The notes below the pieces were generated by a model that was given only the letters and a program-made list of their open reading frames with translations, ran no database searches and had not been told where the DNA came from. A stretch of 64,000 nucleotides of DNA from Acidobacteriota bacterium (lineage in GTDB: Bacteria; Acidobacteriota; Terriglobia; Versatilivoradales; Versatilivoraceae): positions 1,478 to 65,477 of the forward strand of contig JAKEER010000111.1 of assembly GCA_022616615.1 (NCBI GenBank). Reading direction: 5' to 3'. Below are positions 8,882 to 24,124 of the stretch, piece after piece. Numbering within the stretch: the first letter of the stretch is position 1; each line of letters starts with the position of its first letter. Position numbers and translations under genes: made by a program.

Positions 8882-9482
8882 CATTTCTTCGGAGGGCAGC
8901 CCTCGCTGCCTACCACTCGCGTGGATGGCGCATGCCATTGCAGACGCCCGTCACCACTGCCACGGCGCGCCGCTTTGGCATTTCATGGGCGTCGGGCCGG
9001 GCAAAGACTCAGTAAGCAGACTGGGGGCGTGAAGTTTAGCTGAATCGCGGCGACGACAAATACGTCGTCCGTCAGGTTGAAGCGGGGCACCGTTAATTGG
9101 CCTCTTTGTTCCCATTTCTGGAGAAAGATTTCCTATTGTCTTGTCGGTTCCCGGAAGGCGAACCTGATCAAACTTTGTCCCTGCGAGTAGCTTACTAGCC
9201 TTTCCGATTCTGGAAGTCGACGTGCCAATAGACGTTCAATCTACCAAATCCCGTGCTTGATTTCACTTTGAAGGAACCGAGTGATGAGAGCTGGTGCCGG
9301 ACACCACAGCCACATGGCGGGATATCAAGGGCACAAGCCTGGAGGCAGAGATTGTTGCTGGGAGACTTCTCGCTGCTTTGGCGTTTGATTTCGCTACTCC
9401 GTTTCCGAAGACTGTGCCTAAAGTTCTTATGTTATTGAGTCGAGTAAACCACTGCTGTGATGTACGAGGGGGTAGCCTGGTG

Positions 9483-10922
9483 ATGCAATTCGGTGGGGTC
9501 TTACTGAACCAAAGAAAACCTAGATTTCAGCCTCGATTCCTAAAATCATTCGCATTTCTGCTTGCTCTCTTCCTCGCTTGCTCTGAGGGAATCTGGGCAA
9601 AGACTCCGGCGTCGTCCTCGCGCGCTGCGACGGAAAGTACGCTCACATCGAACGCCTCATCCAAGAAGAAACTACGGAAAAGCTCCTCACGAAGAAGTAG
9701 ACGGCATCGCCGGCTAAAGATCAGCCGTTCGCTCAAGCCCATGCCACCACTGAGCGAGGCGCCCTTTAGTGCCGATGTGCCCCTGCTCAGTTTGATTGAA
9801 GAAGCCAAATCGCAACTCGAAAAAAAAGCGGTCCGATATTTTGCCGGAAGTGGGAAATCTCCCTCGCGGCGAGACGTGAAACTGGCGCTTGCCCATTTCA
9901 AAACGAGTGAGCTTCAAATACTTTCCGGTGTGGAGCAGGAACGGAAACTAACGTTGGAAGATCCGAGCATCCGGTATGAAGTGGACTGGTGGAACGGGTT
10001 CAACTCCTCGATCAACATTATTGACCCACCTTACAGCGGTGTGGTTGCCATGCTGTACGCCCTCGAACCGGATCGGCAGAGGTTCCTCGGTCAAGACGCC
10101 ATTATCTATACTCCTTACTCCAGCGCTTTGCTTCAAACGGAATTGGTGGAAGCAGGAAAGAACTATCTCATGGAAAAAATCCGCCAGGCGCGTCAGGAGC
10201 TGGGGCGTGTGCCGTCGCGAGCTTTTCCGGGAATGTCTCTCGCTACCGCCCCAGGTTTCAGCGATGAAGACTATTTCAATCTTATTGTGACAGAACAGAT
10301 GGACCCGGGCCGCTTTCGGTCAATTGCGGCGGGCTGCTGGGAGTTCAACGAACAACAGCAGTCGGAATTGAAACGTCTGGCCGAACGGATTCTGGTAATT
10401 ATTGGCGCCAACCAGGAAGATGCTTACAGCTTTACCGGCAATTACGCCAGTGCCCGCGGGCTTACGCAATTTACGCCCATAGGCATGAGTGTTGTGTGGA
10501 GCGGCTATCCGGAGGCGGGCATTCCAAGGGATTTCCGCGAAGCGACGAGTCAACACCTGAACGCGATCAAGGCCGAAATCTGTCTGCTCGATCACGATCT
10601 GGCCGGTCTGGCAACAAGCCATTCAGCTTTGATTGGCTCTCGCATGGAAATGTACGCTGCGGGAGCCGCCTATAACGGAGGGCCAAAGCGTGTGCGTTAC
10701 GGGCTGGAGAATTTCGGCCTGACGTGGCTTCACCCGGTTTCCAGGCTGGCAGAACTAGAAGGTCGGGGCGCCCTGAACGTTTCAGAAAAGAAGGAATACC
10801 TTTGGCTCAAACGCAACCGCTCGCATGAGACCTTCGTTTATTTGAACAAGATTCACGCGATCCAACGTTCCCAAGACAAATTGTCCGCCAACCGCAGCAC
10901 GGTAACGCCGACCGGAAACTAG
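9483..10922 (+). CDS. Secreted or lipoprotein SLT-domain lytic transglycosylase-like protein
   Basis: ATG at 9483 within ORF 9294..10922. Signal peptide with possible lipobox (LALFLAC). Basic Ser/Arg/Lys low-complexity linker. C-terminal SLT-like motifs (ARGLTQFTP, AAYNGGPKRV). Confidence 0.6.
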   Translation: MQFGGVLLNQRKPRFQPRFLKSFAFLLALFLACSEGIWAKTPASSSRAATESTLTSNASSKKKLRKSSSRRSRRHRRLKISRSLKPMPPLSEAPFSADVPLLSLIEEAKSQLEKKAVRYFAGSGKSPSRRDVKLALAHFKTSELQILSGVEQERKLTLEDPSIRYEVDWWNGFNSSINIIDPPYSGVVAMLYALEPDRQRFLGQDAIIYTPYSSALLQTELVEAGKNYLMEKIRQARQELGRVPSRAFPGMSLATAPGFSDEDYFNLIVTEQMDPGRFRSIAAGCWEFNEQQQSELKRLAERILVIIGANQEDAYSFTGNYASARGLTQFTPIGMSVVWSGYPEAGIPRDFREATSQHLNAIKAEICLLDHDLAGLATSHSALIGSRMEMYAAGAAYNGGPKRVRYGLENFGLTWLHPVSRLAELEGRGALNVSEKKEYLWLKRNRSHETFVYLNKIHAIQRSQDKLSANRSTVTPTGN

Positions 10923-11085: not shown

Positions 11086-11207
11086 ATCTGATCTGAACAC
11101 CACATTCCATGTTTCAAGAGTTCGGGCAAACCTGTGCGCTTCCCAAGCGGCCTCAGCCCGCTCGGCGCTCTGATATTAGAAAGCGAAGCCCAAGCGGCCC
11201 AGGCCTC

Positions 11208-14200
11208 TCAGCGATGAACAGGTATGAGATGGCAGACCAGTGTTAGACGCTCCAGGGTAGAGGGGCCGCCATGGGTGAAGACGCTGCCATTCGGACTCAG
11301 GCGAAAGCCATGGTCACCGAACAACAACAGCGGTTGGGCAGGATCGAGTTTTTCCTCCAGTCGTCGGAAGGCGATTTCAAGTTCGGCACAAGCCAACCGG
11401 GTCAATTCTGTGAACGTCGTCTGGCGCCCATGCAGCAGCTTGTCGATCGCGTTTATTTTAATTAAGGGCTTCTTGAACTCGCGGTCCATCAATTCTTGGT
11501 AAAACGAGCTGGTTGATGTCTCATGGGAAACTTGAGCGAAACCTAGTGTAGCGATCTTCCAGGCTGACAGTCCATCCGGCAATGCAGCCTTGAGTGTCCC
11601 CAGTAAGGGAATCCCTAACGCATCGATGGCCAGCCACTGAGCTCCAAGATGAGCGCGGAGCTGTTCACCAAGTTGGCATGGGGTCACAGAAAGCCCGGCA
11701 TTGGCGAGCTGATCGAGATAGGGCAGCCAAAGATCGGGTTTTAGGCGCACGAAGCGCGAGTGTTGCTCATACAGGACCATGATCCGCTGAGCCAGTTCTT
11801 CAGCGGAGGCTGGCGGCAAGTGGTTTAGGAGCTCGGCAGCCGCCGCCACCGGGCCTGAGGCAGGGCATGTTGACGGGAGAGGAATGAGGCCGTCGAGTAT
11901 CATCTGGACGACGCGATCGATCTCGGCTTCAGCCAATCCCAGCGATTCCAGCTTGCCCAGGCTTTCCGGACTGACCCAGGCAGGCTGCATTCGCTCGATC
12001 ATCAGTTGCCTCTCGGCTTGGGAGAGTCCTGGAGGCAGGGGAATGGCTTGCCGCATGACCTGCTCACAACACCAGGCGGCCAATTCCTGTCGGGCTGCAA
12101 GCTCTTCACGCTGGAAACGCAGACGTGGGCCGTAGCGTACGAACCATTCCTCCAGCGTCTTGAGCAGCTCCGCCTTGTCCCACAGTCGGTCTCCCAGAAA
12201 ATCGAGCAGTGCCTTGCCTGGCACGCTTCGAACCAATTCCAAACCCGACAGATGCTGGTCGAGCAGCGCGACATTCTCCACTTTAGGAAACGGCTCCTTG
12301 CCTTCCAGGTAGGAAAGCGTCTCTTCTTGCAACTCGAACTTTTGATCAACCCATTCACGGATCTGCGCCTTCACCTTGTCCTGTTGAAAGAAGACTCTCA
12401 GATCCCGATCTAGTCGCTGCTGGGCCTCTTCGAAACGGCGCAATGTCTCGGCCAGCGGGGCCTGCTGGCCGTCAAAGCGGCACCGGCAGAGGGGCTGAAA
12501 GCCCAGCGAGCTCAAGCCGTTGCAGCGTTCGCTTTTGGCGCGTGACTGCAGTGCATTCAACCCTTCGACTGCTCCTTCCAAACCCAGGTGCCGGCTGCGC
12601 ACGATAGCGGGAAGTTGAAAGCTCCACACAGGGTGCTGCCGCACCTCGCTCCACCACTGGTTATGCCTGTTCGTGTACCACTCTTCATACCGCCAATAGA
12701 GTGCCTGGGCTCGGCTGAGCCATGCTTCTAAAGCCTCCGGTTGACTCAAGGGCGGAGGCGCTTGGAGAGCTTCCAGGGCCACAGAAATCTCCAGATTCGA
12801 ACACTGGGTTATGCAAGGGAAACTCAGTAGATGGCTGAATCTTTGCTTCTCGGAGATGAGCTTCTCAAAGCGCGCCGGTAGCGAGGCCATCTCGCTCGCT
12901 TCAACCAAAAAACGCTGCGGTGAGCCGATCGCGAAGAGAAAATGCTCGAAACCCTGCAGTTCGTGCTCGCCCTTCTCTAGAGCCAGCCACTGGGTAATAA
13001 GCTTTTCGATTTGTTCCGCGAGTTCACCGGTGTCGCCTTGCGATTTAAGCTTCATGAGAAACTGGCTGATGTCTTCTTTTTGCCGGCTGCCGAGCTTGCG
13101 CAATTGTTCGATGGCCCGCTTCTGGGCCAGAACGCTCCACTGCTTGGGAACCGGAATCCGAAACCCTTCACATATCGTTTGCAGGTCGCGAAGTTGGTTC
13201 AGATTGAGTGCGCGGCCCGGAACAATTTGATCGTACTGAAGTGGATTAGGCAGTGTCTCGTAATAGTCCCGGTAGGACTGCGGGCCTTTCACAATATCGA
13301 TCTCTCCCTGGACAAGCAGCGTGAGCAGCAAGAGGTGAATTTGGTCGGGAAGCAGGCCGTAAACTGGCCCACCCAGGTGTTGATAAACGCGGCTAGGCGC
13401 AGGATGGTGTTGCAGAATGGGATTCAGCAGCCGCACGAGCTCGTTATTATCCAGCTTCTGTGCCATCAAATAAGTTACGCCACGCCGTTGCATCAAACCC
13501 AGCGGAACCAGATAGGCTTCCCGAATCAGTCTTACATAGTCGGGAACTTCCTCAGCTGTGATGTCGCCCGAAAGAGCTTGTTGCATAAACTGCCGATAGG
13601 CTTCTTTGGGCAGCGGGCCGTGACTGGGTGCAAAGCGTTCAAATAGGGGGAACGTGTGCCGCAATATCCATTCTCCCAAGGCACCCAACCAGCCTGCTGT
13701 CCCGGCCTGCACGGTGTTGGTGGGAAGCGCCGTTTTGCTGCCCCCGGGAAGGTAGACGCCTGCCTCAAGGTAAGCGCTGCGGATCAGAGAAGCGAACCAG
13801 GAACTGCGGCTTTCGATGCGTTCTTCAATTCGCTTCAGCAGGCGCGCCGGCAGAGGCCGCTCCTTCAATTGCATCAGGGCAGCGAGTTCGAGAACCTCGG
13901 GTGTCAGTTCGAGAGGTTCTGGAACCAGCAGAAAGCAGTGATCGCCGCCAACGGGAGGCCCCCAAGGAATACCAATCTGAAGCCCCAGTTCCTTAGTGTC
14001 GGGCGGCCTGCCGCCGCCCAGGTAAAACTGAATGTCTCGGTCGTGAAAGTGCCAGCGCTGCTTTCGTGTTTGCCAGCGGTCCCGTGACAGGCTGAAGGGA
14101 TTGAATTCGGCTCGCTGCAAGCAAGGCAGCAATCCTTCGAAAATTGCTTCTCCCCGCTGTTTCAGCTCGTCGACCGTACGGTTCAACAGCGGCTCCAGGT

Positions 14201-15497
14201 TTTCGGTGCTATCGTCCTTCAGATCGAGCTGGTAGCGGGTCTCCTTGCGCCTCAGGTAGGCACCCTTCTGCACGAGACTGTCCAGCAGAAGCTTCACAAT
14301 CTCGCGGTTCTTCTGCGGATCGATGCTCGATGCCTTGAAGAGCAGCCACTGGGCTGCCTCTTCCAGCTCCAAGTACTCACGGCGCGGCGAAAGATGAACC
14401 AGAACGAGCAGTTTCAGTAGCTGCCAGGCGAGCTGTTGTTGCTTTTTGTTTTCAAACAACTGAGGAACCCGTTTGCGGAAGAAGGGAAAAACCTTCTGCG
14501 AAATGGCTTGAAACTCGGGTTGAACCTCGAACAGGTCTGCGAAGTGATCCACAATGACGTCGGGTGTGAGTAGGTGGCCGCAGGGCTTTTCAAGGAAGGG
14601 TTCGATCCCACGAGCTGGACTTCCCAGCAACTGGGTGAGCGTGAAATCGACGATGCCACGCGCCTGCGAGAAGCGATCTCGCACCTCCTCGAGCAATTCG
14701 AGAGTCATGGGATGCAGCGGATAGATCTTACAGAAGTCAACAAAGTCGATGCTGCTTTCGGGATAGATAGCCTTCAGATCGCGGGCGAGTTTTTCGACGG
14801 CTGAGGCATAACCAGCTTTCTTGCGCAAGAGCCGGTGCGCAATGAGGTCCTTCACGTGCGTGGGCGTGAGCAGCAGGCGCAGCGGATAGCGATCTTTGAT
14901 CTTGCGGTATAAGTCGTATTCGAGATCGCCTGTGTGCTCGATCTGCTCCTGAAGAGCGGCCAGCACCCAGAAGGGATGCTCCTCGGCCCACTCTCCCAGA
15001 AACTGCAGAAAGCGGATGTCTTCGTTGAAACTCTGCGGCGAAGGCTTCGAGCGTAGAAACTCCGAAAGCTCGTCGATGACTAGCAGCAGCCCACCGCGAT
15101 GCCGCTTCATGACCTCGCGCCAGGCAGCACGCCGATCGGTGCTGCCCGGAGGGACCTGCAGAATCTCTTCCAGGATGGATTCCAGCGACTGAGCTGCTTT
15201 GTAGTTCAGCAACGACAGCGGCACGGTTTCGCGCTGGAGCAGCGCCAGGCGGCCCTGACTCATCTGTTGAGTGAGATAGGCAAGAAAGTGCGACTTGCCC
15301 GATCCGTAGTGCCCGATCAGAAAGATGCCGTTGCCCTTCTGCTTGGAAAATAGATGCTCCAGCGACTTCAGATGCTTTTCGCCATCCTCAGTCAGGTAGT
15401 AGCTGTCGCTGATCCAACCGGCGTCTTTGCCCTGAAGTTGGTCCAGCCGGATAACAGTGGGCTGAGGATGAAGATCAACCAAGTCACGAATCTTCAA
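11208..15497 (-). CDS. Large P-loop NTPase (BrxC/PglY-like N-terminus) fused to a C-terminal PglZ (alkaline-phosphatase-superfamily) domain
   Basis: 1429-aa uninterrupted ORF. Walker A GHYGSGKSH (nt 15291..15314), Walker B LLLVIDE, YPLHP motif. The last ~142 aa (nt 11211..11636) carry the PglZ-type motif series AIDALG, HETSTSS, IDKLLH, FGDHGF, THGGPSTLE. Confidence 0.75.
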   Translation of the reverse strand: MKIRDLVDLHPQPTVIRLDQLQGKDAGWISDSYYLTEDGEKHLKSLEHLFSKQKGNGIFLIGHYGSGKSHFLAYLTQQMSQGRLALLQRETVPLSLLNYKAAQSLESILEEILQVPPGSTDRRAAWREVMKRHRGGLLLVIDELSEFLRSKPSPQSFNEDIRFLQFLGEWAEEHPFWVLAALQEQIEHTGDLEYDLYRKIKDRYPLRLLLTPTHVKDLIAHRLLRKKAGYASAVEKLARDLKAIYPESSIDFVDFCKIYPLHPMTLELLEEVRDRFSQARGIVDFTLTQLLGSPARGIEPFLEKPCGHLLTPDVIVDHFADLFEVQPEFQAISQKVFPFFRKRVPQLFENKKQQQLAWQLLKLLVLVHLSPRREYLELEEAAQWLLFKASSIDPQKNREIVKLLLDSLVQKGAYLRRKETRYQLDLKDDSTENLEPLLNRTVDELKQRGEAIFEGLLPCLQRAEFNPFSLSRDRWQTRKQRWHFHDRDIQFYLGGGRPPDTKELGLQIGIPWGPPVGGDHCFLLVPEPLELTPEVLELAALMQLKERPLPARLLKRIEERIESRSSWFASLIRSAYLEAGVYLPGGSKTALPTNTVQAGTAGWLGALGEWILRHTFPLFERFAPSHGPLPKEAYRQFMQQALSGDITAEEVPDYVRLIREAYLVPLGLMQRRGVTYLMAQKLDNNELVRLLNPILQHHPAPSRVYQHLGGPVYGLLPDQIHLLLLTLLVQGEIDIVKGPQSYRDYYETLPNPLQYDQIVPGRALNLNQLRDLQTICEGFRIPVPKQWSVLAQKRAIEQLRKLGSRQKEDISQFLMKLKSQGDTGELAEQIEKLITQWLALEKGEHELQGFEHFLFAIGSPQRFLVEASEMASLPARFEKLISEKQRFSHLLSFPCITQCSNLEISVALEALQAPPPLSQPEALEAWLSRAQALYWRYEEWYTNRHNQWWSEVRQHPVWSFQLPAIVRSRHLGLEGAVEGLNALQSRAKSERCNGLSSLGFQPLCRCRFDGQQAPLAETLRRFEEAQQRLDRDLRVFFQQDKVKAQIREWVDQKFELQEETLSYLEGKEPFPKVENVALLDQHLSGLELVRSVPGKALLDFLGDRLWDKAELLKTLEEWFVRYGPRLRFQREELAARQELAAWCCEQVMRQAIPLPPGLSQAERQLMIERMQPAWVSPESLGKLESLGLAEAEIDRVVQMILDGLIPLPSTCPASGPVAAAAELLNHLPPASAEELAQRIMVLYEQHSRFVRLKPDLWLPYLDQLANAGLSVTPCQLGEQLRAHLGAQWLAIDALGIPLLGTLKAALPDGLSAWKIATLGFAQVSHETSTSSFYQELMDREFKKPLIKINAIDKLLHGRQTTFTELTRLACAELEIAFRRLEEKLDPAQPLLLFGDHGFRLSPNGSVFTHGGPSTLERLTLVCHLIPVHR

Positions 15498-15686
15498 ACT
15501 GAAACTCCCAGGCGCTCACGACAAAAGCAAAGGTCAAACCAAAGGGAGGAGTGAAAGCCAGAAACGAGGAGAATAAGTCAACCGGGGTACCGTTCTCTGC
15601 CACCTTGCCTTGAGACATCGAAATCCACTCAACGCCCTTGGACTGTTCTCGGCTGACTCTGTGCGATAATCTAACACAAGGCTGCC

Positions 15687-16655
15687 ATGAGTCCGCCAAA
15701 TCCCATCGTTGATGTGCTGCGCCGAAACCTGCGACAGGCACTGCACGGGAACAGCCTGGAGGAGGCGGAAAAGATTCTGCTGCACTTGAGGAAGGAAGAT
15801 CCGCTGAGCCGGGAGACACGGGGCCTCGAGCTGGAGCTCCTTCTTAAGGCACACCGGCTGGGCGAAGCCCAGGCTCTGGCACAGCAGCTGTGCCAGTTGT
15901 TCCCGGATTCGGGACGCATACAGTTGCTAGCCGGCCAGGTGGCTTACCGGCAGAAGCGCTATTCCGAGGCGTTGGCTTGTTTTCACGAGAGCCAGCGCAT
16001 TTATCCGCACTGGCAAACCCAGCAATGGCTGGGCAAGACGCTGACACAGCTGGGGCTTTTCGACCAGGCGGAGTCCTTGTTGCTGGCCGCTCGGGAGCAC
16101 TCGACCCAGGCTTTGCTAGATCTGGGCTGGCTTTATGAGCGGCAGCGCGACTGGTCCGCCGCGGGAAAGTCTTACAACGCCTTTCTGAAAGAGCATCCGG
16201 GTCACAGCTTCGCGACAAACCAGTTGACGCGTGTGAAAGCGAAGCAGCTCGATCCTGAGGCGCTTATCGAGGAAGCCGAGACGCTGGCGGAGTTTGGCCA
16301 GGCACTGCCAGAGGTCCTGTTCGAAGAGTACATCGACTCATTGTTCGCGACGGGTCAGGGACCGGCGGCTCGTGAAGCACTGTTGGCGCGGCTGCCGGCT
16401 CTCGATGCCCGCCAGGGCGTGCGTCTGGCTTGGGTTTGCCATCGTGCCCAGGCCTATGACCTGGCCTGCCGGCTGTTTCTCAGTCACCTGGAAACAAATC
16501 TTAATAACTTCAAGTATCTGGCAGCCTTCGAGTCGTCTGCGCGCAAATGCCATCGCTTGCCCGATGTCCTCGATGCCTATCGTCGCTTGGCTCCCCAAGA
16601 GCGAAAACTTTACGGTCGCATGCGGAGCTTAGCCAGCCGGATGCGGAAGGCATAA
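15687..16655 (+). CDS. TPR-repeat protein
   Basis: 322 aa, all-helical with repeated TPR-like A/L/Y/G patterns (GEAQALAQQL..., YSEALACFHESQRIYPH, WSAAGKSYNAFLKEHPGH). Divergent from the ATPase-PglZ gene. Confidence 0.75.
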   Translation: MSPPNPIVDVLRRNLRQALHGNSLEEAEKILLHLRKEDPLSRETRGLELELLLKAHRLGEAQALAQQLCQLFPDSGRIQLLAGQVAYRQKRYSEALACFHESQRIYPHWQTQQWLGKTLTQLGLFDQAESLLLAAREHSTQALLDLGWLYERQRDWSAAGKSYNAFLKEHPGHSFATNQLTRVKAKQLDPEALIEEAETLAEFGQALPEVLFEEYIDSLFATGQGPAAREALLARLPALDARQGVRLAWVCHRAQAYDLACRLFLSHLETNLNNFKYLAAFESSARKCHRLPDVLDAYRRLAPQERKLYGRMRSLASRMRKA

Positions 16656-17137
16656 GTGCCCTTGCCAAGCACCAGTTCGCCTCCGATCCACTCACCACCG
16701 TGGCCCCATGGTCTGGATCTTTGAACAAAATGTTCTGCCCACCACGTCTGAAAAGCCTGGGAAGAGCTGCTGGCACCTCAGGCGGCCCGGATGCCAAGTT
16801 GTTTCTTGGCTCTTGCTACTTTTCTGCGTTGGGTTCGGAATGGTTCGACGGCTGCGCCAATCTAACTAATCCGGAATGGTTCACAAGCGTTGGGCAGGTC
16901 GGAGCGGCATGCCATCGCCGGGTGTAACTCGAACCGGCTCCCGGCTGGTTTAGGATGTACTAAGACACTATTTCACGGAAACCCGCTTCGGGCGGATCGG
17001 CCACCGCGCTTGAGTGCTGTCTGCAAAGCAATTCCCCTTCAACTTTTCAGTGGATTCAGTCAGGTCAATTAGGTAGCATCTTGCCTTCGTTTTGCAGCAA
17101 ATCGGCCTTTTCCAAGCAAACTTTGCCTAAGGTCCCG

Positions 17138-17461
17138 ATGAACATCGATTTCGCTACCCTTTACCTGATCTCAGTTCCTGGCTTCTTAGTTGGATTGCTG
17201 ACGGGCAGATTTCTGGCTGGGAGCCGCTGGCAATCCATTAAGAAATCGCTGGGTGTGGTAGGCAAGTTGTTGAGCGCCGCAGGTCTGTTGGCTCTTGTGG
17301 GAGCCTCGCTGATCACCCTGGGGATCATGATCGTCTATTTGCGCCACCTTCCTGAAACGGCCAGCCGTACAAACTTTTGGGTGACGCTAGCCGTCGGCTT
17401 GTGGATGTTGATCAACCTCTTCTTTGAGATTCGCGACTTGGGGAAGCGCCGAAATGTTTGA
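17138..17461 (+). CDS. Small multi-pass membrane protein, unknown function
   Basis: ATG at 17138 in ORF 17081..17461. Three or four hydrophobic helices. No family recognised. Confidence 0.45.
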   Translation: MNIDFATLYLISVPGFLVGLLTGRFLAGSRWQSIKKSLGVVGKLLSAAGLLALVGASLITLGIMIVYLRHLPETASRTNFWVTLAVGLWMLINLFFEIRDLGKRRNV

Positions 17462-19379: not shown

Positions 19380-20333
19380 TCACAGCGTTAACCCCGGCGG
19401 AGTGTTCAGGTCGGCAAACAATGCAGTGCTCAGATATCTCTCGCCCGTGCTTGGCAGCACAGTCACAATTAGCTTGCCTCTGTTCTCGGGACGGCTGGCG
19501 ACCTGCAAAGACGCGTAGACGGCCGCGCCAGAAGAAATCCCGACCAGCAGCCCTTCCTCGCGAATCAGCCGGCGGGCTGTGTGGATGGCCTGCTCGTTCG
19601 TTACCTGAATGATTTCGTCAATGACTTCTCTGTTCAGAATGTCTGGAACGAATCCGGCCCCAATTCCCTGAATCTTGTGCGGGCCTGGCGGGCCGCCCGA
19701 AAGCACCGGCGAATCGACCGGTTCCACCGCTACTATCTTGAAACTTGATTTGCGTGCCTTGATGATTTCACCAACACCTGTAATCGTTCCTCCCGTGCCT
19801 ACACCGACTACGAAAATGTCGACCTGGCCGTCTGTGTCATTCCAGATCTCCTCTGCGGTGGTTAATCGGTGGATCTTTGGGTTGGCCGGGTTCTTGAACT
19901 GCTGGGGAATCCAGGAGTTCGGGGTTTTGGCAGCCAGCTCTTCGGCAACCGAAATTGCGCCCCGCATTCCCTCAGCACCCGGCGTCAGCACCAGTTCTGC
20001 GCCAAACGCTCTGAGCAGTGTTCGCCTCTCCAGGCTCATCGTGTCAGGCATCGTCAAAATCAGGCGATAGCCCTTCACAGCACACACGAACGCCAATGCA
20101 ATGCCAGTATTTCCGCTGGTCGGCTCGATGATCACCGTGCTCCGATTGATCACTCCGGACTTCTCTGCTTCGTTGATCATGCTGATGCCGATCCGGTCTT
20201 TGACGCTTCCGGCCGGATTATAGGACTCCAGCTTGGCAACCACCGTCGCGACAGCCCCCTCAGTTACCTTGTTCAAGCGCACCATAGGGGTCTTGCCCAT
20301 GAGTTCCAAAACGTTGTTCGCAATGTTTGCCAT
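19380..20333 (-). CDS. cysK: Cysteine synthase A (O-acetylserine sulfhydrylase)
   Basis: [22 protein letters not shown]..., PLP-lysine region [30 protein letters not shown] at 20333 with AGGAG 8 nt upstream. Confidence 0.92.
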
Positions 20334-20343
20334 GCGCGGACTC

Positions 20344-20781
20344 CTAAATGTAGTACATGAACTGCTCCTGAATTCTTCTCTGGCGGTCGCAAAATTCTTC
20401 CAATGTCTTCTGCTTAAGAATGCCAACAGTGTGGGAAACGAGATCTATCCAGATATCTTTTAGAATTTCCTGGGTCGGATTTTGATCCGGTTTTGACTTT
20501 CCAACGAAGTTCACGTTTTCAATGGGACCTTCCAAGGCCGTGACTATGTCGAACAGTGTAATCTCCTGAGCAGCCCGTGCTAATTGATAACCTCCCTGGC
20601 GTCCCCTTGAACTTTCAATCAAACCGGCCTTCTTCAGCATGAGCAGGAGTTGATCTAGGTATTGCTTGGGGATGTTTTGCCTTTCAGCAATCTGAAAGCT
20701 CTGAACAGGACCACGCCCTGAGTGCAATGCCAGATCGATGACAGCCAACAACCCGTACTCGCCTTTAGTGGAGAGTTTCAT
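20344..20781 (-). CDS. Rrf2-family transcriptional regulator (CymR/IscR-like)
   Basis: 145 aa, [18 protein letters not shown]..., winged-helix [34 protein letters not shown]. Its stop TAG overlaps the cysK SD. Confidence 0.9.
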
Positions 20782-20902
20782 CTCAATTCCCTAACATGAC
20801 TAAGAAAATCAGAATACTCAATATACTCACTGAGCAACGTTGCAGTCAACAGGAAACTCAAGTCAAGAAAGCAGATACATACCAGATCTCTGTACTTCAG
20901 GC

Positions 20903-20954
20903 TTGACTTGCCCAGGTAAACCCAATATATTGACTAAGCCTATTTGTTTAGTCA
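20903..20954 (+). promoter_or_regulatory. Candidate cysH promoter with an overlapping inverted-repeat operator
   Basis: TTGACT (20903..20908), 17 nt, TATATT (20926..20931). Immediately followed by TGACTAA-N10-TTAGTCA (20931..20954). Another TGACTAAG copy lies at 20797..20804 next to the Rrf2 gene start. Confidence 0.4.
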
Positions 20955-21075
20955 TGTTTTACTTGAAATTGAGGATTCTTCCGCCAAAGAGTACGCCGCC
21001 CTCTGACGCTCCCTGCTAGCGTTTGGGCAGGCAAATTCGAAGGACTTCATCCTCACTGTATCTAAAAACTGCTCG

Positions 21076-21828
21076 ATGGAAAAGACTGACGACCTTCCCC
21101 GCAATCAAGATTCTGTCTCCGCCTGGCAAACGCTGCTGGCTGAAACGAATGCCTCAGAAGTCATTCGCTGGGCGGCTGAGACCTTCGGAAGCCGGCTGTG
21201 TTTTGCCTCATCGCTAGGAGCCGAGGACCAGGTTATCACGCACTTTATAGCCGAGGCAGCACCCGGAATTCGCCTCTTCACCCTGGACACAGGAAGACTG
21301 TTTCCTGAGACCTATCAGCTGATTGACAACACCGAGGTTCGTTACAATCGTAGAGTTGAGGTGTTTGCTCCAAACACGCAGGAAGTGGAATCGATGGTGG
21401 GCGAGCACGGGATCAACTTGTTTTACAAGAGTGTGGAGAACCGCAAGCTCTGTTGCTCGATCCGAAAGATTCACCCGTTGAAGAGGGCTTTGGCTGGCGT
21501 GGATGCCTGGATCTGCGGGCTTAGGCGCGATCAGGCAGTGACACGCCAGCAAGTCCAGGTTATCGAATGGGACGAGCAGTTTGGAATTGTGAAGATCAAT
21601 CCGCTGTGGAACTGGTCTGAGCAGCAGGTCTGGGACTGCATCAAGAATAATCTCATCCCTTACAATCCACTTCACGACAAAGGATTCCTCAGCATTGGGT
21701 GTTCCTGCTGCACGCGCGCGGTAGCAGCAGGCGAAGATGTCCGCGCTGGCCGCTGGTGGTGGGAGCAACCGGAACACAAAGAATGCGGCTTGCATCGCAA
21801 GGATGGGAAACTGGTAAGGGCCGAATGA
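21076..21828 (+). CDS. cysH: Adenylylsulfate/phosphoadenylylsulfate reductase (thioredoxin-dependent); Cys pattern suggests the Fe-S APS-reductase type
   Basis: PAPS_reduct fold. Cys pair KLCCSIRK plus GCSCCT and the C-terminal catalytic KECGLH motif. Confidence 0.9.
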   Translation: MEKTDDLPRNQDSVSAWQTLLAETNASEVIRWAAETFGSRLCFASSLGAEDQVITHFIAEAAPGIRLFTLDTGRLFPETYQLIDNTEVRYNRRVEVFAPNTQEVESMVGEHGINLFYKSVENRKLCCSIRKIHPLKRALAGVDAWICGLRRDQAVTRQQVQVIEWDEQFGIVKINPLWNWSEQQVWDCIKNNLIPYNPLHDKGFLSIGCSCCTRAVAAGEDVRAGRWWWEQPEHKECGLHRKDGKLVRAE

Positions 21829-22805
21829 GCATTCTGACGAGTCCGACTGAGCTGGCTAGCGAAACGTCCGAAAAAAGCCGCTCGGCACTTGAGGCAGGAA
21901 TGGAAAGCTACTTTTTGTCGCACCTTGATGTGTTAGAAGCCGAAGCGATTCACATCATGAGGGAAGTGGCGGCTGAGTTTCGGCGCCCCGTGATGCTGTT
22001 TTCAGGGGGCAAAGATTCCATCTGCATGCTGCGTCTTGCCGAAAAGGCCTTTCGTCCGGCCCACTTTCCTTTTCCCCTGCTTCACATCGACACAGGACAC
22101 AATTTCCCTGAAGTAATCGATTTTCGTGACCGGCGCGCGGCGCAGCTTGGGGAACGGTTGATTGTCCGCACTGTCCAGGACGCTATTGAAGCCGGAATTG
22201 CTACAGAGCCTACAGGCGGCGACCGAAGCCGGAATTGGCTCCAGATTCCAACGTTGCTCAATGCGATTGAAGAGTTCAAGTTTGACGCCGCCTTTGGTGG
22301 CGCCCGGCGGGACGAAGAAAAGTCGCGCGCCAAAGAGCGGGTCTTCTCGTTCCGCGATGAGTTCGGCCAGTGGGATCCGCGCAATCAGCGCCCCGAACTG
22401 TGGAACCTCTATAACACCAAGATTGCTCCCGGCCAGCACATCCGCGTCTTTCCGCTATCCAATTGGACTGAACTCGACATCTGGCAGTACATCGAGCGTG
22501 AAGCTCTCGAAATACCAACCATTTATTTTTCCCACTCAAGGGAGATGTTCCTGCGTGACGGGCTCTGGATGAGCCACTCTGATCTTCTTCCGCTGAGGCA
22601 GGGCGAAACCGTTCTGAAGAAGACGATTCGCTTTCGAACGGTAGGCGACATTATCTCAACCGCTGCAGTTGAGTCCCAAGCCTCCACCGTTCGCGAAATT
22701 ATCGAGGAGATCGCTGCTACTCGAATCGCTGAACGGGGTGCTCGGGCCGATGATCGCCGCTCCGAAACGGCGATGGAAGACCGAAAGCGAGAGGGGTATT
22801 TCTGA
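21825..22805 (+). CDS. cysD: Sulfate adenylyltransferase subunit 2
   Basis: VMLFSGGKDS PP-loop, HIDTGHNFPE, canonical C-terminus MEDRKREGYF. The ATG at 21825 overlaps the cysH stop (ATGA). Confidence 0.95.
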   Translation: MSILTSPTELASETSEKSRSALEAGMESYFLSHLDVLEAEAIHIMREVAAEFRRPVMLFSGGKDSICMLRLAEKAFRPAHFPFPLLHIDTGHNFPEVIDFRDRRAAQLGERLIVRTVQDAIEAGIATEPTGGDRSRNWLQIPTLLNAIEEFKFDAAFGGARRDEEKSRAKERVFSFRDEFGQWDPRNQRPELWNLYNTKIAPGQHIRVFPLSNWTELDIWQYIEREALEIPTIYFSHSREMFLRDGLWMSHSDLLPLRQGETVLKKTIRFRTVGDIISTAAVESQASTVREIIEEIAATRIAERGARADDRRSETAMEDRKREGYF

Positions 22806-24124
22806 TGCCGGGAACGGCTAAGACAAACACCAAGTCGGTCGAACTGCTTCGCTTCTCGACCTGCGGCAGTGTCGACGACGGAAAGAGCACATTGATTGGG
22901 CGACTGCTGCACGACTCCAAGTCAGTTTTCGAGGATCAACTTCAGGCTCTCGAAAGGGCTCGGGAATTGCGCGGTGAATCCTCTGTGAACTTGGCCAACC
23001 TTACGGACGGTCTTCGGGCTGAACGGGAGCAGGGCATTACGATTGACGTCGCCTATCGTTATTTCGCGACGCCTAGGCGGCGCTTCATTGTTGCCGATAC
23101 GCCGGGACACATTCAATACACGCGCAACATGGTGACAGGTGCCTCAACAGCGAGTTTAGCCCTGGTGTTGGTGGACGCTCGCAAAGGCGTCATCGAACAA
23201 ACACGGCGGCATAGCTATATTGCCTCGCTGTTGGGGATCCCCCATCTTGTGCTGTGCGTCAACAAGATGGACTTGGTTGCGTTTTCTCAGGGTTTATACG
23301 AGAAGATCCGCCAGGACTTTACTGTCTTTTCCACCCGGCTTCGCATCAAGCACATCACTTTCATTCCAATGAGCGGTCTGCTGGGCGACAATGTCGTTGA
23401 CCGTTCCGCAAGCATGTCCTGGTATCAGGGCGAGCCGCTGCTTTCGTTTCTTGAAGATGTCCATATCGCAAGCGACTGGAATCTTCAAGACGCGCGTTTT
23501 CCCGTTCAGTGGGTGGTTCGCCTCCGGGATAGCGTGCATCGAGATTTTCGAGCCTATGCGGGGCAAATTGCCAGTGGCGTCTTTAGGGTGGGAGACAGAG
23601 TTCTAGTGTTGCCCTCGGGGAGAACTTCAAAGATTAGGGATATTGTATTGATGGGCCGGTCGATGAAAGTCGCTCACGCCTCGATGTCGGTCTCATTGTT
23701 GCTAGAAGACGAAATCGATGTGAGTCGGGGCGATATGATCGTTCCCGTTGAAAATCTGCCCTATATCGGCAAAGAAGCCGAAGCCATGCTGTGCTGGATG
23801 CACGAGACCCCGATGCAACCCGGGAAAAAGTACGTCATCAAGCACACAACGAACTCGACCAAGGGGGTGATTACCGCCCTTCACTGCCGTGTGAATGTTG
23901 ACACGATGGAAGAGGAACGGGCTTCGGCGCTAGGACTGAACGAGATTGGAAAGGTTTCGATCCGCTCAGCTACACCGTTAATCTATGACGAGTACTACCA
24001 TAACCGGCGTCTCGGAGGCTTCATTGTTATCGACGAGGCCACTTACGCAACAGTGGGTGCCGGAATGTTGTTTGAACCCACCAAAGTGCCGCCCCTCCCG
24101 GAGTACACAGACTACGCAATTTGA
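22805..24124 (+). CDS. cysN: Sulfate adenylyltransferase subunit 1 (GTPase), with no fused APS-kinase domain
   Basis: G1 CGSVDDGKST, G3 DTPGH, G4 NKMD. 439 aa, so no CysC extension. The start overlaps the cysD stop by 1 nt. Confidence 0.95.
   Translation: MPGTAKTNTKSVELLRFSTCGSVDDGKSTLIGRLLHDSKSVFEDQLQALERARELRGESSVNLANLTDGLRAEREQGITIDVAYRYFATPRRRFIVADTPGHIQYTRNMVTGASTASLALVLVDARKGVIEQTRRHSYIASLLGIPHLVLCVNKMDLVAFSQGLYEKIRQDFTVFSTRLRIKHITFIPMSGLLGDNVVDRSASMSWYQGEPLLSFLEDVHIASDWNLQDARFPVQWVVRLRDSVHRDFRAYAGQIASGVFRVGDRVLVLPSGRTSKIRDIVLMGRSMKVAHASMSVSLLLEDEIDVSRGDMIVPVENLPYIGKEAEAMLCWMHETPMQPGKKYVIKHTTNSTKGVITALHCRVNVDTMEEERASALGLNEIGKVSIRSATPLIYDEYYHNRRLGGFIVIDEATYATVGAGMLFEPTKVPPLPEYTDYAI

Follow-up and report, generated by a model that had tools for sequence, protein, structure and literature searches.

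In a 64-kb window (the whole stretch of Acidobacteriota DNA analysed here, 64,000 nucleotides of contig JAKEER010000111.1, assembly GCA_022616615.1) we identify a two-gene module that is related to the bacteriophage exclusion (BREX) systems, conserved, widespread and, as far as we could find, undescribed. One gene encodes a single polypeptide in which a BrxC-type ATPase precedes a C-terminal PglZ domain; the other, transcribed divergently, encodes a tetratricopeptide repeat (TPR) protein. BrxC and PglZ are the only proteins universal to BREX and have been studied within six-to-eight-gene systems, where methylation and restriction are entangled; here both core functions, brxC and pglZ, sit in one gene.

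The coding sequence of the fusion is complete and uninterrupted (11208-15497, minus strand; 1429 amino acids in the list of open reading frames (ORFs) and its translation), running from a TTG start at 15497-15495, with a Shine-Dalgarno-like GGGAG 7 nt upstream, to a stop codon at 11210-11208. The reading frame proposed by the initial annotation is therefore real, its strand having been left unstated there, and every motif quoted for it is found in the translation: GHYGSGKSH (residues 62-70, with K68), LLLVIDE (137-143) and YPLHP (259-263) in the ATPase part, and AIDALG (1290-1295), ETSTSS (1326-1331), IDKLLH (1351-1356), FGDHGF (1393-1398) and THGGPSTLE (1408-1416) in the C-terminal part. Across 40 homologues of 43-77% identity, K68, D142, E143, D1292, D1352, H1356, D1395, H1396, G1397, H1409, G1410 and E1416 are invariant, and T1327 and T1329 are kept in at least 90%; since the Walker and catalytic residues are conserved in this way, the motifs are not a product of chance.

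The same annotation had called the gene an orphan, which it is not. A database search with the fusion returned 839 homologues, of which the best 120 are nearly all full length (about 1420-1480 aa, 43-77% identity) and carry at most the label ‘DUF6079 family protein’; a scan of one genome per species found relatives in 363 of 185,579 species-representative genomes (~0.2%), the best 80 of them nearly all spanning residues 1-1426. Carriers include Acidobacteriota, among them the cultured Sulfidibacter corallicola and Acanthopleuribacter pedis, and, beyond that phylum, Gammaproteobacteria (many of them Methylococcales), Myxococcota, Planctomycetota, Gemmatimonadota, Binatia and others. Identity to the window fusion does not follow taxonomy, one gammaproteobacterial copy reaching 51% and some Acidobacteriota copies only 36-46%, and this, along with presence in so small a share of genomes, suggests some horizontal spread of the family. 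Conservation is even along the protein (frequency of the commonest residue 0.46-0.81, as means of 40-residue blocks over 40 sequences), with no hypervariable segment seen in that alignment. A more distant subfamily of longer DUF6079-PglZ fusions, of 1490-1770 aa (P0244, P0256, P0258, P0259, P0262 and P0264; loci L088 and L089), was also recovered, at least two members of which (P0244, P0264) match Pfam DUF6079_2nd.

The closest relative in the genome collection (L066, CAVVYL010000036.1; 83% identity, gene order as in L001) comes from a metagenome-assembled genome (MAG) labelled Acidimicrobiia; all other close relatives are Acidobacteriota, and this may be an error of binning or labelling.

Architecture of the fusion protein

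Residues 1-550 (13848-15497, minus strand) form a BrxC-type AAA+ ATPase domain of the ORC/Cdc6 clade, complete with lid, and a winged-helix-like module after it, as profile and fold matches agree. The Walker A motif lies at 15288-15314 and the Walker B motif at 15069-15089, both on the minus strand, and both are intact. Pfam PF19557 (DUF6079, now BrxC-PglY_N) matches the ATPase core only, with 90.6 bits against a cut-off of 23, and PADLOC models for BrxC match the N-terminus with E-values down to 3.6e-20; the NCBIfam equivalog BREX_BrxC (NF033441) gives 51.2 bits and does not reach its cut-off of 400. A phmmer search of the whole protein against PDB sequences returned nothing significant. With a profile of 40 family members, the best solved relative is Acinetobacter BrxC (9zn5_A, E 6e-7), in an alignment that pairs Walker A, Walker B and the subsequent motifs. 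An AlphaFold2 model of residues 1-1200 (predicted local distance difference test (pLDDT) 84, predicted template-modelling score (pTM) 0.42) has as its top Foldseek match the crystal structure of the BrxC N-terminus (9zll, E 5e-9; target-normalised TM-score 0.48-0.53 over ~550 columns), with ORC/Cdc6 initiators next. These results (Pfam DUF6079, PADLOC, the 9zn5_A profile and the 9zll fold) bear out the BrxC/PglY-like N-terminus of the initial annotation.

The PglZ domain takes up residues 1280-1429 (11211-11660, minus strand) and was assigned along four independent lines, from profiles, fold and active-site residues. Single-sequence hidden Markov model (HMM) scans fail here: the last 195 aa of the fusion have no match to Pfam PglZ (PF08665) or in a PADLOC scan at E<=10, and a Pfam scan of 38 family C-termini gave no PglZ match either, so that the domain came to light through profiles and structure comparison. 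The best PDB match to a profile built from the last 160 residues is a ‘PglZ domain-containing protein’ (9nv3_C), a weak match (E 0.033) whose alignment keeps the DHGF and HGG...E motifs in order. The AlphaFold2 model of residues 1225-1429 is very confident (pLDDT 96.1, pTM 0.91), and PorX accounts for every one of its top 17 Foldseek matches (E down to 6.3e-6, probability 1.00, TM-score 0.44-0.54); the BREX PglZ chain 9zn5_B comes next (probability 0.82), with the generic alkaline-phosphatase superfamily members MCR-1, EptC, iPGM and phosphopentomutase ranking lower.

An exhaustive profile search of 1.84 billion representatives yielded 203 matches only, and in these the domain always lies at the extreme C-terminus. 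The weaker matches include a PglZ that Pfam does recognise (P0249, 27.1 bits against a cut-off of 25), while P0262, P0256 and P0248 score just under that cut-off; hhalign pairs the family profile with P0249 at 97.8% probability (E 7e-13, 137 columns, all motifs aligned). The link between the fusion's C-terminus and Pfam PglZ is a transitive one only, through P0249.

The fourth line of evidence for the domain is its active site. Mapping the ligand list of the PorX paper (PMC9757075) onto the fusion places the metal ligand at the end of β1, PorX D239, at D1292; T272, at once metal ligand and nucleophile, at T1329, which is the probable nucleophile here; the DxxxH ligands D361 and H365 at D1352 and H1356; the DH ligands D415 and H416 at D1395 and H1396; and H500 at H1409. 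All seven metal ligands are thus present and in order, invariant apart from the threonine, which is kept in at least 90% of the homologues. Of the core residues, T270, G417, G501, G502 and E507 correspond to T1327, G1397, G1410, G1411 and E1416, and P511 to L1420, a position at which the family consensus is also proline. The DxxxH spacing and that of HGG-x5-E (H-x6-E from histidine to glutamate) are those of PorX, whereas the T-to-D distance is 23 residues against 89, and that from DH to the next histidine (H1396 to H1409) is 13 against 84. From these short distances we conclude that the cap subdomain and another insert are missing; the model shows no three-stranded cap subdomain after the DH motif, and has a short hairpin there. 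The N-terminal modules of BREX PglZ are likewise absent, as the ATPase and arm precede the domain, which ends at the C-terminus of the fusion. Judged by sequence and predicted structure, then, the C-terminus is a core-only PglZ domain of the alkaline-phosphatase superfamily, ~150 residues long as opposed to ~307 in PorX.

The compact PglZ C-terminus put forward in the initial annotation stands on these grounds despite the Pfam result. The HMM comparison suggested there came out positive for DUF6079 and negative for Pfam PglZ, and the suggested comparison of predicted structures led to the PglZ domain of PorX, at the E-value and probability given above.

Between the two domains lies a middle region of residues 551-1279 (11661-13847, minus strand), delimited from the AlphaFold2 model and the DSSP pattern, in which small alpha/beta and winged-helix-like modules are predicted along with long helices at 789-1051. 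Past residue ~430 nothing in Pfam, PADLOC or NCBIfam matches the fusion, Pfam DUF6079_2nd misses it, and beyond ~550 there is no sequence or fold match to BrxC. In BrxC itself the downstream layout is a winged helix-turn-helix (wHTH), an alpha+beta domain of ~200 aa, one or more further wHTH units and a coiled coil of 250-500 aa with an apex subdomain; the predicted order of elements in the fusion is compatible with this, and the long helices, as modelled, resemble the BrxC coiled-coil arm and would be compatible with the arm described by Rakesh & Krishnan (NAR 2026).

Three cysteines, C992, C1004 and C1006, occupy invariant alignment columns in the motif RCxGL..LxFQPxCxCxFDG (12480-12524, minus strand), and in the model they sit in a long loop (990-1014) that joins two long helices of the predicted arm. 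We suggest that this loop may form a hook-like, zinc-binding apex, recalling the zinc hook of Rad50 or the apex subdomain of BrxC.

The TPR partner and the genomic context

The partner gene (15687-16655, plus strand) encodes a 322-aa protein with Pfam TPR matches. It is separated from the fusion by 189 bp (15498-15686) that presumably hold the promoters of both genes; a sigma-70 consensus scan of this interval gave 0 sites. At the other end, a terminator-like hairpin (11185-11207, minus strand; a pattern match from a consensus scan) lies directly 3' of the fusion's stop codon, which suggests that the fusion gene is monocistronic.

The initial annotation had named the TPR gene merely as a candidate partner, and the comparative evidence is now much stronger. 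The comparison took in 81 homologous loci after removal of redundancy, with up to 10 kb of flanking sequence; 77 of them are informative for the TPR gene. All-versus-all clustering of their 3805 flanking ORFs leaves two conserved genes, one for the fusion (in 80 loci) and one for a ~320-aa TPR protein (in 68); there is no third, the other clusters being shadow ORFs that overlap these two. By tblastn, 70 of the 77 informative loci have an orthologue: in 62 it is the adjacent, divergent gene, in six it lies upstream but is set apart by an insertion of 0.85-2.9 kb, and in two it is rearranged. It is absent from seven loci that have room for it, and four loci do not allow a decision. The orthologues align over their full length at 29-82% identity, and their divergence correlates with the fusion's (Pearson r = 0.94, n = 59). 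In the distant subfamily, a 323-aa TPR gene immediately precedes the gene for P0244 (1654 aa) in the same orientation, the two overlapping by 4 nt; given this operon, the partnership spans two subfamilies and two gene arrangements. The TPR gene is, we conclude, a true conserved partner of the fusion.

No substitute partner is common to the seven loci that lack it. One of them (L004/L084, on contig_9406 of a MAG labelled delta proteobacterium) has a context that looks more island-like than those of other loci: a convergent gene for a 963-aa SNF2 helicase follows the fusion, and ~10 kb upstream there is a second DUF6079/NACHT-like gene fragment, amid small DUF4160 and DUF2442 genes and an N6_Mtase fragment (locus positions 1-375 and 14403-17294).

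Neither a methyltransferase nor BrxA, BrxB, BrxL or a helicase was found in the window, by Pfam scans of partial coverage that took in the genes next to the module and, in the 28-64 kb part, ten of the largest ORFs; and neither clustering at 80 homologous loci nor the neighbour scan revealed a recurrent methyltransferase or other BREX gene within ~10 kb. The earlier statement that no methyltransferase lies within 10 kb has thus held, in the window as scanned and at the homologous loci, and since the modification and accessory genes were looked for and not found, the module is not a member of any BREX type. A methyltransferase may be encoded elsewhere in the genome, outside the scanned loci.

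The surroundings of the module are mostly unremarkable. The window contains an RND efflux pump, an ABC transporter, the sulfate-assimilation genes cysK/H/D/N and a large exopolysaccharide cluster, and its GC content is flat (0.53-0.58), with no compositional signature of horizontal transfer. Around eight homologues with annotated surroundings, the genes are mostly housekeeping ones and vary from one locus to the next (PNPase/rpsO/argGH, peptidases, RecBCD, cytochromes, transporters). Among 111 directly adjacent genes scanned at 64 loci no family occurs more than three times and most are again housekeeping, with a scatter of defence or mobile genes: AbiEii (two), integrase (two), mad8 (three), mad3 (two), and one each of SNF2 helicase, Hhe and PDC-S37. 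In the longer subfamily, whose contexts come mostly from short contigs and are sparsely sampled, one member has a phage integrase and a 205-aa gene of no assigned function as neighbours. Between Sulfidibacter and Acanthopleuribacter the locus is syntenic; identity is 66-81% for the flanking genes, 54% for the TPR protein and 48% for the fusion. This indicates vertical inheritance between these two genera, and a somewhat faster evolution of the module than of the genes around it. The neighbourhood survey proposed in the initial annotation therefore confirms conservation of the TPR gene and finds mostly housekeeping surroundings, largely without association with defence islands.

Several further observations concern individual neighbours. 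Convergent with the fusion in the window is a 542-aa ORF (9294-10922, plus strand) with no Pfam match; the two closest relatives (L001, L066) have a 74%-identical version of it, again in the vicinity of the module. Just 3' of the fusion in the two syntenic genera there is a convergent gene of ~210-260 aa (L018, Sulfidibacter, 14364-15098, minus strand; L059, Acanthopleuribacter, 14326-15105, minus strand); the two share 48% identity and match alpha/beta-hydrolases weakly, and the gene is not conserved family-wide. An unannotated 207-aa gene occupies the same place in a gammaproteobacterial MAG (L006, 4643-5266, minus strand).

At 19380-24124 of the window, 4-9 kb from the module, lie cysK, the phosphoadenosine phosphosulfate (PAPS) reductase-family genes cysH and cysD, and cysN; sulfate-assimilation genes also occur near the P0071 fusion (51% identity), on the other side of the module. 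We considered these genes as an analogue of BrxP of type-4 BREX and rejected the idea: they are found in only two of about eight annotated contexts, on opposite sides, and are classic CysH/CysD/CysN. Their proximity is probably loose synteny or coincidence. The listed cysH (21076-21828, plus strand) and cysD (21699-22805, plus strand) ORFs overlap by 130 nt, and cysD probably begins downstream of its listed GTG start. The exopolysaccharide cluster (27194-63197, plus strand, co-directional) comprises a polysaccharide export protein, a Wzz/GNVR chain-length determinant, an AAA_22 ATPase, a sugar transferase, asparagine synthase, an AMP-binding enzyme, UDP-glucose dehydrogenase, glycosyltransferases and a flippase.

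A model for the module and its possible roles

In BREX, the AAA+ domain of BrxC binds BrxB:PglZ in an ATP-dependent manner and DNA promotes BrxC oligomerisation (PMC13326643), and the PglZ of E. fergusonii is a metal-dependent nuclease, inhibited by nucleoside triphosphates (NTPs) and inactivated by mutation of its nucleophilic threonine, that displays no sequence or methylation specificity in vitro (PMC11974810); the PglZ domain of PorX cleaves cyclic and linear oligonucleotides (PMC9757075). By analogy with these proteins, and from the domain identities, the conserved catalytic residues, the TPR partnership and the lack of other conserved genes, we infer a model that extends to the substrate, the gating by ATP, the role of the TPR protein and the biological purpose, be it defence against mobile DNA or a cellular function on nucleic acids. 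We think it fairly probable that, in outline, the fusion is a PglZ phosphodiesterase gated in cis by its ATPase, with the TPR protein as an adaptor, sensor or regulator.

In this model the ATPase would bind ATP and dimerise or oligomerise on nucleic acid as BrxC does, while the helical arm with its invariant cysteine loop might mediate contact from arm to arm. The fused PglZ domain, with a complete two-metal site and Thr1329 as nucleophile, would then cut phosphodiester bonds, whether in DNA, by nicking or cleavage, or in oligonucleotides, by degradation, as governed by the nucleotide state of the ATPase. Its active site would be open, because the cap subdomain is missing. The fusion might in this way be a self-contained sensor, motor and effector, in which ATP-dependent assembly positions and gates the PglZ domain; the covalent link would make the BrxB bridge and the BrxB-binding N-terminal domain of PglZ unnecessary, and both are indeed absent. 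As no methyltransferase is linked to the module, discrimination of targets cannot rest on a methylation mark of the BREX type.

Should this outline hold, a role as a dedicated anti-phage or anti-plasmid system, in effect a minimal BREX independent of modification, is one that we regard as a serious possibility, if something short of probable. The TPR protein or the ATPase arm would sense the invader, and PglZ would destroy either the invader's DNA or that of the host, in an abortive infection. Both domains are hallmarks of BREX defence, the family is patchy across phyla with identities that cut across taxonomy, and AbiEii, integrases, mad genes, Hhe or an SNF2 helicase are on occasion nearby. 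What speaks against such a role is the largely housekeeping make-up of the neighbours, the synteny between genera and the normal GC content; moreover, the fusion has no hypervariable segment of the kind reported for the sensor domains of BrxC and PglZ, and its partner and C-terminal domain lie outside all PADLOC models. It is on account of the context, synteny, composition and even conservation that we call a defence role plausible and unproven. The initial annotation, which favoured defence, had itself held that homologues in housekeeping contexts with no island association would count against it; such contexts are largely what we observe, and they weaken the proposal, which nevertheless stays plausible.

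The housekeeping contexts and the conserved synteny would also fit a cellular, non-immune machine, inherited mostly vertically, in which the TPR protein links the fusion to a cellular partner and ATP-gated phosphodiesterase activity serves chromosome or DNA-structure maintenance, or the turnover of an oligonucleotide signal as in PorX. The best structural match of the C-terminus is PorX, a signalling phosphodiesterase, and not BREX PglZ; purifying selection looks uniform over the 1429 residues, no modification enzyme accompanies the module, and ATPases of the ORC/Cdc6 type are classically DNA-loading or initiator proteins. Even so, 363 of 185,579 genomes is too low a share for a core function, the fusion changes more quickly than its syntenic neighbours, integrases or toxin-antitoxin genes adjoin some loci, and no consistent functional neighbourhood points to a pathway, so that we hold this role, again given the outline, to be possible but doubtful. 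We entertain, with similar hesitation, the broader idea that the BREX core pair also exists outside immunity, as a vertically inherited, modification-independent and ATP-gated phosphodiesterase, bound to DNA or directed at oligonucleotides, that works with a dedicated TPR adaptor in bacteria with large genomes (Acidobacteriota, Myxococcota, Planctomycetota, Methylococcales). Were this so, the module would be either an ancestor of BREX or an exaptation from it.

A signalling NTPase of the STAND/NLR type, with its TPR sensor in trans, in which a ligand bound to the TPR protein triggers oligomerisation and activates PglZ, would account for the TPR array, typical of STAND sensors, and for a terminal effector laid out as in Avs/NLR proteins. 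Pfam does return NACHT (25.6 bits) and a weak AAA_16 match for the fusion, but the former falls under its cut-off of 26.7, the ATPase groups by both profile and fold with BrxC and ORC/Cdc6 and not with STAND, and STAND sensors are normally fused in cis; we consider this explanation improbable. That the fusion is an ordinary BrxC of a canonical BREX with its genes elsewhere, or a decaying remnant, its C-terminal motifs being fortuitous, agrees with the DUF6079/BrxC-family label given by annotation pipelines, and we reject it as very improbable indeed, in view of a confidently folded PglZ domain whose catalytic residues are invariant across phyla, about 70 loci with the two-gene arrangement and no other BREX gene, and an NCBIfam BrxC equivalog score of 51 against a cut-off of 400.

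Some findings sit less comfortably with our overall reading of the module. The Pfam PglZ model misses the C-terminal domain, and the Foldseek TM-scores are moderate (0.44-0.54); past residue ~550, the likeness to BrxC is one of predicted secondary structure only; and the TPR gene is missing from seven loci with enough flanking sequence. As regards defence in particular, the housekeeping contexts, the inter-genus synteny, the unremarkable GC content and the want of a fast-evolving region all count on the same side.

The single-chain BrxC-PglZ protein is a ‘Rosetta-stone’ fusion, and as such lends independent support to a direct functional coupling of the two proteins in BREX. It offers a two-gene system in which to study the control of a PglZ nuclease by an ATPase of the ORC/Cdc6 type, and could be used as a minimal model of the BREX core; to our knowledge, the mechanism by which BREX stops phage has yet to be resolved. 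The core-only domain, at ~150 aa, defines a minimal catalytic unit for the PglZ family. If the module is defensive, it is a new, methylation-independent relative of BREX that present defence-finding HMMs miss; if it is not, the BREX core has a life outside immunity.

Comparison with described systems

The claim that this is not a described system has so far held up. Full-text literature searches for a module of PglZ, BrxC and TPR, of PglZ, STAND and tetratricopeptide, or of a C-terminal PglZ with an ATPase found no published description; the text of the most comprehensive BREX survey (Rakesh & Krishnan, NAR 2026) makes no mention of a BrxC-PglZ fusion or a TPR partner, and PADLOC-DB v2 has no model that covers the TPR protein or the compact PglZ.

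The closest comparisons are with the longer DUF6079-PglZ fusions, two non-canonical PglZ systems, PorX and type 1 BREX. The longer fusions (e.g. P0244, P0256, P0262, P0264) share the BrxC-type N-terminus and a PglZ domain at the extreme C-terminus, but this PglZ is distant (profile E 1e-10 to 1e-6), the proteins are 60-340 residues longer and contain DUF6079_2nd, and the TPR gene is co-directional and overlapping, not divergent; as far as we found, they are likewise undescribed. Two non-canonical arrangements reuse PglZ with a BrxC-like (DUF6079) or DUF499 ATPase, namely the type-3 BREX-related (BR-3) and the HerA/FtsK-centred systems. The PglZ of BR-3 is, like ours, a stand-alone phosphatase core without BREX accessory domains, but it keeps the cap subdomain and is encoded by a separate pglZ gene, along with a methyltransferase and a helicase that have no counterpart in the fusion module; the HerA/FtsK-centred system has separate PglZ and DUF6079 genes and five others (STAND, DUF4007, HerA/FtsK, GNAT, TGT). 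Neither has a TPR partner or a BrxC-PglZ fusion.

PorX, a response regulator of type IX secretion (7pv7, 8thp), is the best structural match of the C-terminus and shares with it all seven ligands and the T-x-T, DxxxH, DHG and HGG-x5-E motifs; in both proteins, PglZ lies C-terminal to a regulatory module that senses NTP or phosphate. It differs in its ~307-aa, capped PglZ domain, in having a CheY-like receiver and a helical bundle and no AAA+ domain, and in its setting, the signalling of type IX secretion in Bacteroidota.

Also close is the BrxC:BrxB:PglZ assembly of type 1 BREX (Acinetobacter and E. fergusonii; 9zll, 9zn5), which has an ATPase of the same family, the best PDB match of the fusion by profile and fold, and an effector of the same family, PglZ, with an identical set of metal ligands. 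There, BrxC and PglZ are separate proteins that associate in an ATP-dependent manner, whereas here they are one polypeptide. The PglZ of the fusion (~150 aa) lacks the N-terminal BrxB-binding, inactive Swi2-Snf2 domain, the HTH units, the helical connector, the cap and the C-terminal immunoglobulin (Ig)-like domain of its BREX counterpart, and the fusion loci are without BrxB, BrxA, BrxL and the PglX methyltransferase; in their stead, the partner is a TPR protein.

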